A stretch of 64,000 nt of DNA, taken from the NCBI GenBank assembly GCA_021513715.1, contig CP084167.1:1312001-1376000 (forward strand), written 5' to 3'. A program made the position numbers and the translations under genes. This DNA comes from Candidatus Heimdallarchaeum endolithica (GTDB lineage: Archaea; Asgardarchaeota; Heimdallarchaeia; Heimdallarchaeales; Heimdallarchaeaceae). Shown here piece by piece: positions 11,389 through 63,425 of the stretch; the stretch's first letter is position 1, and each line of letters starts with the position of its first letter. The notes beneath the pieces are model-generated. The model was not told the origin of the DNA, did not search any database, and was given only the letters and a program-made list of their open reading frames with translations.

Positions 11389-12401
11389 ATGTTAATCTTC
11401 TTTTTTTGAATAAAAACCTTATTGAATTGCAAAATTTTTTTATTCTTACTTTTAAATTTATTTTTAGGGAGAGCGTATTCTGCGCAATTTTAGTTGTTGA
11501 AGTATTTGTCCTAAACTTGAAGGAAATGCCTTTTGCTCTTTCATAAATAAGAATAGGAAACTAGAAACAAATCTCCCTAAGAATGAGATTCCTAATCCAA
11601 TAGTTAAAGCTAGTTCTATCCCATAACTTATTTTCAAATAATCGACCAGATAACCAGAAACTAATGAACCAAAAAACAAGAATAATCCTGTTATCATATT
11701 ATATATTCCAAAATATATTCCTCCTTCTCTTTCTGGAGCAATATCTAACAAATAAGCTTGTACACTAGGCATTCCTAAAGTTACTAGAGAAGAGACAATA
11801 AAATGGATAATATATAGTTGCCATACTGAACTAGCAAATATATACAACAATGGAAAAGTTGCCATTATTATTCGGCTAAAGAAAATCATCTTTGTTCTTC
11901 CAACATTATCACTGATTTTTGCCCCAATATTGATAAATAACAAAGTAGTAACAGAAAATAATATGTTTAATATTGCAATCTCTAAAGCACTAGCTTTAAG
12001 TATTATTACTTGCTTTATAGGGAAAAGAGGCCAAGCAAAAGACCAAAAGAAAGAATAGATCATTGAAAAGAAAACAAAGTTGCGGAAAGGTTTATTTTTA
12101 TAGGAAAGACTAAAGCTTTCTTTCAATTTCCTTGAAACAGGTTGGTCTTCTTTTTTAATTTTCTTCAAAGGTTCTTCAATTGCAATAAAAGGTAGGACAC
12201 CTATTGCAGACAATGCTATTCCCAAAACTACTGGAATAAGAATATATTTCTGATAATCTATATCTCCGAAAACTAAAGTTAAAACTATCCCTGTAAAGAA
12301 TGTAGCAATCATGCTACCAAAAGCGTTATACCAAAAAACTCTACTACTTAACTTCGCTCTAACTCTTGGGGGAAACAACTCATTTTGCAACACTCCCCAT
12401 G

Positions 12402-12776
12402 AGATACTTTTTTACGTAATAAACTAAATTTTTAGTTTGTGGAGTTATCAGACCAATAACAACCTGAAACACATTTGCAAAAATAAAGAATACATACACG
12501 ATATTAGGGAGTGTCACAACTTTTCAGCTATCTTTATATATTTAATTCTAATTTATCTAGTGTCTTGAGCTAGATGCTTAAAGACGTAGGTTTCACTCCT
12601 ACGACACCCGGTCTTCCCTTTGGGAGTTATGAGTGCCCGGGATAAGGAGATGAACCCCTTAGAGAACTTAATTAAGACTGTGTCTTTCATGTTCTCTTAA
12701 GCCAGTCTTCACAACTTTCGCTAAGTTTGTTGATTGGTTGGGGAGAGTCCTGAAGAAATTACGTAAAATTTCAACT
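12402..12776. mobile_element. Non-autonomous 375-bp element (CATR-element), copy 1
   Basis: CATG at both 12398-12401 and 12777-12780. Imperfect 19-bp TIR AGATACTTTTTTACGTAAT / AGTTGAAATTTTACGTAAT (14/19, perfect inner 11 bp). Homologous to 41208-41576. No transposase. Confidence 0.93.
12551..12776 (+). ncRNA. Putative structured RNA inside CATR-element copy 1 (boundaries approximate)
   Basis: Successive stems ATCTAG/CTAGAT, CGTAGG/CCTACG, CCCGG..TCCC/GGGA..CCGGG, GAGAAC..AAGAC/GTCTT..GTTCTC, AGCCAGTC/GATTGGTT. G-U pairs in the last stem favour the + strand. Only 4 differences from copy 2. Confidence 0.55.
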
Positions 12777-13257
12777 CATGAAGAGACACCCAAGCTTCCA
12801 AACAAATTCACTAAAGCCACAATTATGATAATTGATATAGGAGACTTAACCCAATATAAGAAAATATATGGTATCCCCCAAGATACTGTGCTTATTACAA
12901 TAAAAGGTATTCTCCTACGGAGTATGTCACTCATTCTACCAAATATGGGATTTAGAAAAGTTAACAACAAATTTGCTATACTTTGCAACCACCCTAGATC
13001 ACTCCCACTTGCATTCATATTTCTTATAGCGATCATTGACACAAATGGTCCCACAAGCCCTTGCGAAACACTTATAGCTATAGAACGAGAGTAAAGAGCA
13101 AGTTTCTCCTTTTGTCCAATTGTCCCATTCTCATCTAAAATTTCATTTTCTTCTTCTGTGATATCTTCGTTGCCAGATAAAGTTCTCTCGTTCATAGTTT
13201 TCTAATAACGAAAAAAAAAACCAATCATAAATATTATTATTGGACTCTAATTATTTT

Positions 13258-18812: not shown

Positions 18813-19970
18813 TTGGTAAAAATGAAAGCAGTTATAACTGGAAAATATGCTGATGGTAAGGATTTTGTAAAGAAAATAGGAAATAACAAACGAACAATTA
18901 ACTTATCAAATAAAAATATAAAAAGTATTGATCTTTCGAATCTTGCCTTATGCGGAAACATAGAGGTTATTGACCTTTCAGCTAATCAATTAGAAGAGAT
19001 AAACCTTACACCTATTGTAAACACTGAACTAGAAACAGTAATCCTTTCAGAAAACAATCTTAAGTCCATTGATTTATCTCCTCTAGCTCAATGTTCTAAT
19101 TTAGAAGAACTAATTTTAGCAGGAAATGAATTTGAAGAAATAGACCTTAGCCCTTTAAGTCATTGTACAAAATTAGAAGAATTAAGTTTATTTGTAAATA
19201 AAATTAGTAAGATAGATTTAACTCCTCTTTCTCAGTGTAAAGAACTTGAAGCATTAATTTTAGCAGGAAATGCAATAGAAGAAATAGATCTTGGTCCATT
19301 GAGTAAGTGTGAAGAACTAGAAGAATTGGACTTGGAATCAAATAAAATTAAGGAGATTGACTTATCACCTCTTGAAAAATGTCAAGAATTAAAAGTATTA
19401 AAATTAGGAATCAATGAATTAGAAAAAATAGATTTAAGCCCACTAAAAGAAAATAGAGAATTATTATTTTTAGACTTAGGTCAAAATAAACTAAAAAATA
19501 TTGATCTTGTTCCTCTTGAGACATGTATTAACTTAAAATGGCTTGATCTTGGACCTAACCTTATCGAAAATATAGATTTAACTCCTTTGAGTAAAACAGA
19601 AAACTTGCTAGAACTTGACTTAGGACCCAATAAATTAACAAAAATAGATTTAACTCCACTTTCAAATTTAAAAAAACTAGAATACATTGATCTTTCATCT
19701 AACCTCCTAAAAGAAATTGATTTAACTCCCTTATCTTCGTGTTCAAGTTTGCAAGAATTAAACTTGGGCGCTAATTTATTACAAAATGTTGACATTTATC
19801 CATTAACTTTCTGCAGATATATTGAAAGAGTAAGCTTAGACGATAAATACGAGTTACTATTTAACGGAGAAAAACTTGAAAATACAGATAATTTACCTAG
19901 AAAGCTGAAAAAAGCACTTATAAGATGGGAAATCAATGAACAACGAAAGGGAAAATTAAAAGCAGACTAA
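18813..19970 (+). CDS. Leucine-rich repeat protein (22-aa repeats)
   Basis: About 14 repeats of consensus LxxLxLxxNxLxxIDLxPLxxC. Confidence 0.95.
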   Translation: MVKMKAVITGKYADGKDFVKKIGNNKRTINLSNKNIKSIDLSNLALCGNIEVIDLSANQLEEINLTPIVNTELETVILSENNLKSIDLSPLAQCSNLEELILAGNEFEEIDLSPLSHCTKLEELSLFVNKISKIDLTPLSQCKELEALILAGNAIEEIDLGPLSKCEELEELDLESNKIKEIDLSPLEKCQELKVLKLGINELEKIDLSPLKENRELLFLDLGQNKLKNIDLVPLETCINLKWLDLGPNLIENIDLTPLSKTENLLELDLGPNKLTKIDLTPLSNLKKLEYIDLSSNLLKEIDLTPLSSCSSLQELNLGANLLQNVDIYPLTFCRYIERVSLDDKYELLFNGEKLENTDNLPRKLKKALIRWEINEQRKGKLKAD

Positions 19971-41171: not shown

Positions 41172-41207
41172 TCCTTCCTTTTTTTAATAAAAAAAAGAAA
41201 TTACATA

Positions 41208-41576
41208 AGATACTTTTTATGTAAAAAACTAAATTTTTAGTTTGTGGGGATATTAGGCCAATAACAACCAGAACACATTTGCATTAATAAAGAATTCACG
41301 ATATTGGGGAGTGTCACAACTTTTCCGCTGTCTTTATACATTCAATTCTCATTTATCTAGTGTCTTGAGCTAGATGCTTAAAGACGTAGGTTTCATTCCT
41401 ACGACACCCGGTCTTCCCTGTGGGAGTTATGAGTGCCCGGGATCAGGAGATGAACCCCTTAGAGAACTTAATTAAGACTGTGTCTTTCATGTTCTCTTAA
41501 GCCAGTCTTCACAACTTTCGCTAAGTTTGTTGATTGGTTGGGTAGAGTCCTGAAGAAATTACGTAAAATTTCAACT
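41208..41576. mobile_element. Non-autonomous 369-bp CATR-element, copy 2
   Basis: CATA at both 41204-41207 and 41577-41580. Same ends as copy 1. Inserted at the last sense codon of the gene at 41571-42227. Confidence 0.93.
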
Positions 41577-42227
41577 CATATCTTCAACATCTAATAGAAA
41601 GACAGCAATAATATTAACAATCAGAACTATTTTTTGTGTTAAAGGCACTGAATAGTCTGGAATAGAGACCCCTACACGATCAAGGATAAATGTTAGTATA
41701 TGTAGAATCACTACTGCAAAGACAATAAAAACGAAAACTACATCAAAGCTTATATGTATCTTTCCTCTGTGCTTATCTTCTTTTCTCATTCTAAAGAATC
41801 TAAGAGCTTGACAATCAAAATCTAATCCCCCAAAACTTATTACAAAAGTAAAAGCCCCGATATAATGAAGGAAGTACAGACTAGAATGATCATAAGGGAT
41901 AGCTATTCCTGCTGCACCAATTGAGAGAATTAGTGTCCATGTAGCTTTTCTAAATCGATAAGTAAGCTCTTCTGTGACCAAGTAATCGATAAATATCGAG
42001 AATGAAATAACAGAAATAAGACTAAAACCTATAGTCATTATCAAAGAAGAGATACTATTTGAAATACCTGTTTCACTATTGATTCCTCCAAGATTGCTTA
42101 TTGCCTCGTTAAAGAAATCATAAGGTTCAGGATAGAAAAACCATGCTAAACCAATAGTAACAATAATTACTATGGCTATAGCCCAAATCAACCAACGAAC
42201 TATTTTTTGCTTATTCATAGAATTCAT
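41571..42227 (-). CDS. Multi-pass membrane protein (DUF998-like); stop codon now supplied by the element
   Basis: ISNLG motif, several TMs, H..GA. Original end was ...EDM-TAA (TAA at 41201-41203); now ...EDMS-TGA. Confidence 0.75.
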   Translation of the reverse strand: MNSMNKQKIVRWLIWAIAIVIIVTIGLAWFFYPEPYDFFNEAISNLGGINSETGISNSISSLIMTIGFSLISVISFSIFIDYLVTEELTYRFRKATWTLILSIGAAGIAIPYDHSSLYFLHYIGAFTFVISFGGLDFDCQALRFFRMRKEDKHRGKIHISFDVVFVFIVFAVVILHILTFILDRVGVSIPDYSVPLTQKIVLIVNIIAVFLLDVEDMS

Positions 42228-57658: not shown

Positions 57659-57712
57659 GTCAAAACTTGTAACTCATAGCTAACTGTCAAAACTTGTAAC
57701 TCATAGCTAACT
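57659..57712. repeat. Perfect 27-bp tandem duplication spanning a stop codon
   Basis: GTCAAAACTTGTAACTCATAGCTAACT at 57659-57685 and 57686-57712. Confidence 0.95.
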
Positions 57713-58688
57713 TAAGATATTTCAAAGAGATATTTCTAAGTTCGTTCTGAGCTTCATCCTCATAATTGTCTAAAGAATGTAGATACATTGAATAATAGAC
57801 CTTAGATCTTACATAAGCTCTGTACGATTTATAGAAATTAACAAACTCTTTTACTTTTGAGAGATTTTCATGCATCAAAGCTAAGTATTTCTCTAACAAG
57901 TATTTTGCTTCTTTTCTTTTGTTGTGATAATCTAAATCCATCGCTAGAAAAGAGATCTCTTCCAAGATATCTTGAATTCTTAAACTTTCATTAAATTCTA
58001 TACAATCAAAAATCACAATTTTTCCATTATCTACAAAGATATTTCGGAGTTGTAAATCTCCATGTCCATCGACAATTTTTCCTTCATTTTGCCTTTTATC
58101 CCAAAATGCCCTATTTTTTTCCATAAAACTATAGACTTTATTAGCAAAACTATTGTCAAAGGGAAAATTTTCATACTTTTGTGTGGTTCGAAAATTTTCA
58201 TCCCATTTCTCGAATATATTTTCAAAAACCTTAATTTCTTTTCTGTAAATGTTTTCCTTATGAAATTCTGATACTATCTCAACAATTTTACTTATTAGTG
58301 TCTTGTCTAAGGGGCGCTTCTGTATTAAATTAATCAAAAGTTTTTCTTGCTGAATTTCTTTCATTTTCACTAAATATTCAATAACATCTCCTTCTCCATC
58401 AATCTTTTTATCAGAAGTAAAAGACACTAATCCCACATATAATTCAGGAGCTAGTCTTCTATTAAGTTCGATTTCTTGCATACTTGCATTGTATCTTTTT
58501 TGTAAAGTTGAAAAATCTAGTACATCCCCAAATTTAATCGTTTTCTTCATTTTATATGCAAATTTTCCTGTAAGAAAAACCCAACTTACATTTGTTTCAA
58601 TAACCCTAATGGGTTCTTGAACATCATGGTTATATGTTTCAGGATTTGTTAATTCATCAACTATAGCCTTTTCTGATAACATTTTCAA
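57687..58688 (-). CDS. Aminoglycoside phosphotransferase-fold kinase (COG2187-like)
   Basis: ETNVSWVFLTG, ELNRRLAP, HGDL..NIF, DCIEFN, FLAMDL, YRAYVR. Confidence 0.88.
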   Translation of the reverse strand: MKMLSEKAIVDELTNPETYNHDVQEPIRVIETNVSWVFLTGKFAYKMKKTIKFGDVLDFSTLQKRYNASMQEIELNRRLAPELYVGLVSFTSDKKIDGEGDVIEYLVKMKEIQQEKLLINLIQKRPLDKTLISKIVEIVSEFHKENIYRKEIKVFENIFEKWDENFRTTQKYENFPFDNSFANKVYSFMEKNRAFWDKRQNEGKIVDGHGDLQLRNIFVDNGKIVIFDCIEFNESLRIQDILEEISFLAMDLDYHNKRKEAKYLLEKYLALMHENLSKVKEFVNFYKSYRAYVRSKVYYSMYLHSLDNYEDEAQNELRNISLKYLKLAMSYKF

Positions 58689-63119: not shown

Positions 63120-63425
63120 ATGAGCGAAAAAAAAATTGTTTTAACAGGTTTTGAACCCTTTGGCGGATCTAAAGTAAACCCTACTGCTAAATTATGAGTT
63201 GAAATTTTACTTAATTTCTTCAGGACTCTCCCCAACCAATCAACAAACTTAGCGAAAGTTGTGAAGACTGGCTTAAGAGAACATGTCCCTTCTTTACCAG
63301 AACAAGTATTAGAAAAAAGGCTTCCTTCAATGTCATTCGAATTAATTGAAAAAGGAATTAAAGTAGCTATTAAAACTATTATTATGGAATTAAAAAATGT
63401 AGAGAATGAAAATTTAATAAAATAA
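63120..63425 (+). pseudogene. pcp: Pyroglutamyl-peptidase I remnant (insertion plus deletion)
   Basis: N-terminus MSEKKIVLTGFEPFGGSKVNPTAKL (63120-63194) and C-terminus HVPSLPEQV..PSM (63282-63425); the middle is replaced by an element fragment. Confidence 0.9.
63197..63285. mobile_element. Truncated CATR-element, copy 3 (inverted relative to copies 1 and 2)
   Basis: 89 bp matching the reverse complement of 12688-12776 with 1 mismatch; preceded by TATG (63193-63196); ends at the element's internal CATG. Confidence 0.92.

Follow-up and report, generated by a model that had tools for sequence, protein, structure and literature searches.

A gene-less repeat of Candidatus Heimdallarchaeum endolithica as a probable omegaRNA-bearing derivative of Asgard TnpB-only transposons

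In the omegaRNAs of TnpB transposons, an upstream unpaired stretch pairs with the terminus of the right end, just before the guide derived from the flank (ISDra2, PDB 8H1J, PMC10097598; ISXfa1 and CboIStron, bioRxiv 2023.08.09.552727, 2023.11.20.567912). In ISDra2, nucleotides -5 to -3 pair upstream and form a pseudoknot directly before the guide (PMC10097598), and according to compensatory mutants the pseudoknot is needed for cleavage in IS607 systems (bioRxiv 2023.11.20.567912). The TAM of the known TnpB systems is read by the protein (PMC10097598; bioRxiv 2023.11.20.567912), and the motif that they target is not the one at the end of the element itself, which spares filled sites; for IS607 TnpBs such a self/non-self logic has been reported, the protein-read TAM filtering insertions. 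The Spu-1 Fanzor1 'ghost' loci (PMC10432273) have nuclease-only parents, inverted ends and no transposase found in the genome, and they include numerous copies without the gene in which the guide RNA is retained; the C(A) preceding the left end is conserved. All these traits recur in the element described below.

The window studied here (64,000 nucleotides of the genome of Candidatus Heimdallarchaeum endolithica) harbours copies of a gene-less repeat of 381 bp (Table 1). The 3.33-Mb genome, a single contig, contains 18 full-length copies with common ends (~365-383 bp; 381 bp refers to copy 1) and 7 partial copies. Both junctions read (C)AT(R). When copy 1 is excised over AT, a single 450-aa frame of an MFS transporter results, and the sister species carries empty sites for both copy 1 and copy 2 (Candidatus Heimdallarchaeum aukensis is a same-genus relative of the host). 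The empty site GATA is to be compared with the filled site GATG...CATA: AT alone is common to both junctions, and therefore the A or G in the right flank is target DNA, the G/A at the left being part of the element. This comparison rules out a 4-bp target duplication, and the CATR that an earlier note on this DNA had regarded as a target 4-mer is composite, with C from the element and R from the target. Nor are A and G, given there as the two variants observed, the only ones, as the right-flank base over 74 ends was G in 47, A in 20, T in 4 and C in 3. IS607 ends are asymmetric and possess direct repeats instead of inverted ones; the present element shares with IS607 a 2-nt core at both junctions, but this core is AT and not GG, and its 10-bp subterminal inverted repeats are in register. 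It also differs from IS200/IS605 elements, which have subterminal hairpins, a Y1 TnpA and nothing repeated at both junctions. The repeat is short, non-coding and multi-copy, has its ends in common with longer parents (see below) and has empty sites, as is characteristic of a MITE or 'ghost'. One copy has entered a complete IS605 element, where it separates tnpA from the left end (L045, G000 923860-925980), and its guide would match that transposon. A 55-bp element consisting of the ends only, without RNA, was found as well (L129, G026 C311).

Table 1. Features of the element and of its host gene, in window coordinates. In the text, G000 is the present genome, G001 the sister Heimdallarchaeum genome, and L numbers are locus labels.
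Feature	Position	Strand	Basis or remark
MFS transporter gene of the host, interrupted by copy 1	11464-13195	-	single frame once element removed
Copy 1 of the non-autonomous element	12399-12779	+	common ends of 18 copies; empty orthologous sites
AT cores of copy 1	12399-12400 (left), 12778-12779 (right)		
Left subterminal inverted repeat TTTTACGTAA	12410-12419	+	9 nt inside AT core; motif also on TnpB-carrying elements
TATA-box-like TTTATATA, predicted promoter	12533-12540	+	~25 nt before conservation begins; kept in divergent copies
Putative omegaRNA scaffold, ~219 nt	12561-12779	+	alignment, covariance model, consensus fold
5' hairpin with TTGAG in its stem	12562-12585	+	consensus fold
CCCGG/CCGGG stem with inner hairpin and 3' bulge	12607-12641	+	folds; strands CCCGG 12607-12611, CCGGG 12637-12641
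Pseudoknot 5' strand AUGAGU	12629-12634	+	invariant alignment columns, pair tables; T12628 outside conserved pairing
Closing stem AGGAGAUGAACC with GGUUGGG.AGAGUCCU	12645-12751	+	conserved in alignment and consensus fold
Internal CATG, start of four 5'-truncated copies	12688-12691	+	copy comparison
Right subterminal inverted repeat TTACGTAAAA	12759-12768	+	9 nt inside AT core
Pseudoknot 3' strand ACUCAU, last six nt before flank, includes AT core	12774-12779	+	
Predicted guide (flanking host DNA), first base G12780	12780-12797	+	length inferred by analogy
Copy 2	41205-41579	+	flank base A; sister species' empty site has single CATA
Copy 3, 92 nt, right end only	63194-63285	-	begins at internal CATG, without loop

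Differently from the known TnpB omegaRNAs, the RNA of the element stands alone behind its own TATA box, whose spacing to the start is in keeping with archaeal promoters, and it has no Rfam similarity, as a search with it gave no real match to any family. Within the closing-stem region (window 12645-12751), the conserved internal loop GGAGAUGA / AGAGUCC resembles a kink-turn and is possibly an L7Ae site. Conservation stops at CAT in all copies, the flank beyond being target DNA. Transcription is predicted to run from the TATA box through the right end into this flank, so that a variable, flank-derived guide would start right after the conserved scaffold, with the target-derived A/G as its first base. 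The role of the flank as a guide is proposed on the basis of the TnpB architecture (PMC10097598).

The same end motif bounds elements of this genome whose sole gene is tnpB, i.e., families D (~12 full copies of 1.8-1.9 kb), G (2), K (3) and J (1). Families J (G000 598xxx-599492) and K (2688067-2689554) are unrelated to D, yet represent the same AT-core inverted-end type, and the target motif of each differs from its own right end. TnpB of the D type was found in 76 of the 400 Asgard genomes searched. In alignments with other Heimdallarchaeaceae, the region behind tnpB is homologous to the element RNA and lies on the same strand; in these relatives, the 5' hairpin of the RNA overlaps the last tnpB codons. 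A covariance model built from gene-less copies only matched tnpB right ends of other Heimdallarchaeaceae (E 4e-12 to 8e-5) and, in the present genome, those of families D and G (E 1e-8, 1e-3, 2e-3), and gave no match to K, J or Thorarchaeal loci. Gene-less copies of 352 bp are present in two other genomes too, where they arose separately. The homology to tnpB right ends together with the TATA-like box argues for a stand-alone omegaRNA in a MITE; all in all, the element is best explained, and quite probably, as an internally deleted, gene-less MITE or 'ghost' of a Heimdallarchaeaceae TnpB-only transposon family.

The TnpBs of families D and G keep D242, a shifted E402 and D436, and their own RNAs have diverged from the element RNA. 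The D-type protein has Gly (G347) at the usual RuvC-II position, and both G347 and E402 are invariant; such a Gly/Pro-for-Glu rearrangement of RuvC-II is also found in Fanzors and several unrelated TnpB clades (PMC10530073, PMC10691335). By sequence and fold, the D-type TnpB is nearest to Cas12f (Z ~20) and ISDra2 TnpB (17.8), with ApmFz2 (16.2) following among the fold matches; SpuFz1 (8GKH) is absent from the fold matches listed, which is no evidence of a difference. The note considered that the element, in an Asgard host, could bear on TnpB-Fanzor origins; no special relation to Fanzors was seen in sequence or fold. The likeness to the Spu-1 ghosts is an analogy and not descent: the SpuFz1 omegaRNA has no pseudoknot, the Spu-1 core is not AT, and by sequence and fold the Asgard protein resembles Cas12f/TnpB more than Fanzors. 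What the parallel does mean is that the architecture of omegaRNA-bearing MITEs exists in archaea too. In a quick tree calculated without Fanzors, the Heimdallarchaeaceae TnpBs formed one supported clade, in whose sister clade two of the four TnpBs checked (P0127, P0135) are located behind an IS607 MerR-resolvase TnpA. An identical TnpB element occurs with mixed left and right flanks across assemblies (L208-L213), representing either real rearrangement or repeat misassembly.

The bulged strand of the CCCGG/CCGGG stem contains TATGAGT (12628-12634), and the same loop is present in copy 2 (41428-41434), in agreement with the earlier note and confirmed by sequence and folds. In copy 1 it is the exact 7-nt complement of ACTCATG (12774-12780); in copy 2 the end reads ACTCATA. 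Loop and end are both unpaired in single-sequence and consensus folds. Among simulated RNAs of equal composition, 2.5% contain a 7-nt match and 6.7% a 6-nt match by chance, so that one copy, or two near-identical ones, is weak evidence. It is conservation and covariation that make the six-nt match real. Of 55 loci, 54 have hexamers (AUGAGU/ACUCAU in the window copies) that are able to pair, a count that overstates independence, as the loci are related and only two double changes are independent. In family D (23 loci), the equivalent bulge and end read AUGAUU/AAUCAU, a double change from G-C to U-A; L063 with AUAAGU/ACUUAU represents the second, independent double compensatory change. Single G-U changes were found in three loci (L066, L214, G000 2097655), and family G has one C-U mismatch within the hexamer. 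Families J and K possess loop/end matches of their own (GUGGUU/AACCAU and UCAAC/GUUGA, respectively). The six-pair match is the 3' pseudoknot usual in TnpB guide RNAs, its pairing being evident from covariation and its function putative; AUGAGU of the bulge would pair with the terminal ACUCAU and close the pseudoknot right before the guide. Six contiguous pairs are formed here in a 3' bulge, compared to three canonical and two non-canonical ones in ISDra2. The TnpB omegaRNA analogy drawn at the outset thus holds, both for the homology of the RNA to the region behind Asgard tnpB and for the covarying loop/end pairing. As the pairing is an expected feature of such RNAs, it implies no new targeting mechanism; it fixes the boundary between scaffold and guide, and predicts VCAT and not TCAT as the target motif.

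The complementarity to ACTCATR does not extend in the same way to its last position. The 7-nt match is present, but only six of the seven pairs are conserved and matter: opposite the flank base, the 55 loci have U (20), A (29), G (5) or C (1), and whole families keep an R flank without U in the loop. A further pairing that had been suggested, between TTGAG in the first hairpin loop and the subterminal TTCAA, fails, because TTGAG sits in a stem and does not covary; in relatives retaining TTGAG, TTCAA is replaced by AATAA.

If the RNA is functional, a TnpB encoded elsewhere would bind it in trans and cut empty alleles. No tnpB with exactly this RNA type was found in either Heimdallarchaeum genome (G000, G001), and as the D and G TnpBs of this genome come with diverged RNAs, a cognate protein for the gene-less copies is assumed. 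This raises the alternative that the RNA is a relic, i.e., that the pseudoknot was merely inherited, that there is no cognate TnpB, and that the element spreads only because its ends are good recombinase substrates. The existence of 92-nt copies without the loop and of the ends-only copy would fit a relic, and so would the near-identity of many copies, which reflects recent spread rather than selection. However, divergent copies (76-86% identity) have changed at the left but keep the TATA box, the stems and the hexamer with compensatory changes, their targets show the same avoidance of T as described below, and independent gene-less families likewise retain the whole RNA and the promoter. We therefore regard a relic as improbable, though it is the most serious competitor of a functional omegaRNA.

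The note had proposed that the loop pairs with the junction of element end and target and in this way specifies or reads the insertion site, U-A pairing and U-G wobble accounting for the R of CATR. The exact 7-nt complement in both window copies is in favour of this idea, as are the 18 of 20 U-bearing loci in which U faces R, also in family D, and one natural inversion between loop and end (L030; see below). Nevertheless, the flank is still R in 30 of the 35 loci in which A, G or C replaces U (p=1 for the comparison with 18 of 20), so the base facing R is neither conserved nor predictive of R, and U-bearing loops also occur with T or C flanks. Covariation of the loop with the target across homologous elements was looked for in 55 loci, and none was seen. 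The reconstructed targets correspond to V-C-AT-R. C was found at -1 in 49 of 53 targets (the search itself slightly favours C), and T at -2 in only 2 of 53 against a background of 35% (p=5e-8); in this genome alone, T was at -2 in 1 of 30 targets (p=4e-5). Every right end reads T-C-AT, and T at -2 is the very base the loop would favour, so that a loop reading the junction would prefer the TCAT targets which are strongly avoided. Family K shows the reverse, with TCAT targets (3/3), right ends TGAT and a loop matching the TGAT ends and not its targets. Furthermore, whether G or A is found in the right flank goes with the base at which the left end begins (odds ratio 10.5, p=0.002). Taken together, the specification of the insertion site by the loop appears highly unlikely.

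Under the preferred explanation of the element as an omegaRNA-bearing ghost, avoidance of T at -2 fits a motif read by the protein with self/non-self discrimination: judging from the target statistics, TnpB would recognize the 5' motif V-C-A-T, and the filled end T-C-A-T would be spared. The tracking of the left-end base points to a resemblance between target and joined ends at the DNA level, or to a mismatch-tolerant overlap. The CATR consensus would then mirror the junction of the joined ends, with C from the right end and G/A from the left, and not the RNA loop. These predictions make the ~490-aa Asgard TnpB clade with its rearranged active site directly testable.

A bridge or seek RNA of the IS110/IS1111 type, with the loop guiding recombination at the 2-nt core, can practically be dismissed: the element shares with these systems the 2-nt core, the subterminal inverted repeats and a structured non-coding RNA at one (the right) end, but the complete circular genome has no PF02371 match and thus no IS110 transposase or recombinase of this kind, the RNA has its homologues in the right ends of tnpB elements, and with a target specificity of ~4 nt there are neither two-strand guide loops (no second guide strand) nor covariation of loop and target.

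The closed genome, which lacks the presumed transposase, holds these inverted-end, AT-core elements in large number, and they have been active recently. The element is probably mobilized in trans by a DNA recombinase that uses AT as the crossover core, most likely a serine recombinase, which is favoured because of the IS607 ancestry. Counted against the best explanation are the typical lack of true inverted ends in IS607 and the lack of its TnpA here: no IS607-type TnpA is encoded in this genome, which has just two resolvase genes, without N-terminal MerR domain, and no TnpA was seen in cis at any Heimdallarchaeaceae locus. No longer element with these ends in the genome carries a transposase. 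The search of the genome for Y1 TnpA revealed one element, whose ends differ from those described here and into which the gene-less element has itself inserted. The single tyrosine recombinase of the genome is not a matching transposase, and its multi-copy DDE elements have different ends. Two paralogous stand-alone serine recombinases of ~250 aa (L043:1213-1932 and L044:1201-1950; G000 316731-317447 and 405351-406097) are candidates only. Within the family, 29 of 31 genomes encode serine recombinases of this type, compared to 0 of 16 other genomes of the order (at E 1e-15); they are ~75% conserved across the family, and never adjoin tnpB (45 loci). A speculative scenario, which we consider rather doubtful, would be that an Asgard TnpB family lost the IS607 TnpA, gained inverted ends and now relies for its movement on a short, host-inherited serine recombinase acting in trans, that promoter-bearing ghosts supply guides in trans, and that the pseudoknot strand doubles as a decoy recombination site.

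Read as DNA, the pseudoknot strand repeats the element end in inverted orientation. On one metagenome contig (L030:1778-1930, unconfirmed by reads), the segment lying between loop (TATGAGT) and end (ACTCATA) is precisely inverted; its counterpart L041 (G000 2922000-2922151) has the same flanks and is not inverted. A left-only copy breaks at the TATG of the loop, and in the sister genome a K-family element has entered the loop of a gene-less copy. There, an inversion of ~16 kb is bounded by two inverted K-family TnpB elements (L198/L207, G001 2585715-2604350), one of which is joined to the loop of the gene-less copy; this copy has lost its left part, together with ~230 bp of flank. L016 was considered as a copy using the loop as its end, but K insertion into the loop (TCAT, minus strand) followed by the 16-kb inversion explains it better. 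Since breaks are also found at the internal CATG (four short copies), breakpoints favour ATG sites generally, and the loop is not special on this evidence.

Among related TnpBs, those of Thorarchaeota-type loci (L150-L157, L215) are arranged head to head with an ORF of 1,600-1,900 aa in 8 of the 8 loci fetched. This ORF contains a PD-(D/E)xK-like motif near residues 400-430; the ~1,700-aa neighbour received no Pfam or Atlas assignment, and no homologue of the large partner ORF was found in the present genome. These Thorarchaeal relatives terminate in GTTCACTCA, a motif known from the Cas1H-Asgard-1/-2 TnpB groups (PMC10691335). In contrast to these groups, a search of the present genome revealed no stand-alone Cas1 above the cut-off, only three CRISPR-type loci and one sub-threshold hit. 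In the Thorarchaeal RNAs, the terminal GTTCACTCA is followed by ~13 variable nt and then by a conserved AGGTCA; a loop partner GRGUGA/UCACUC is inconsistent across loci and is not claimed. Elsewhere in the window, the ORF 18813-19970 contains coding repeats with a period of 72 bp (19053-19682), leucine-rich-repeat-like by period, and a perfect 27-nt tandem duplication is located at the end of ORF 57687-58688 (57659-57712).
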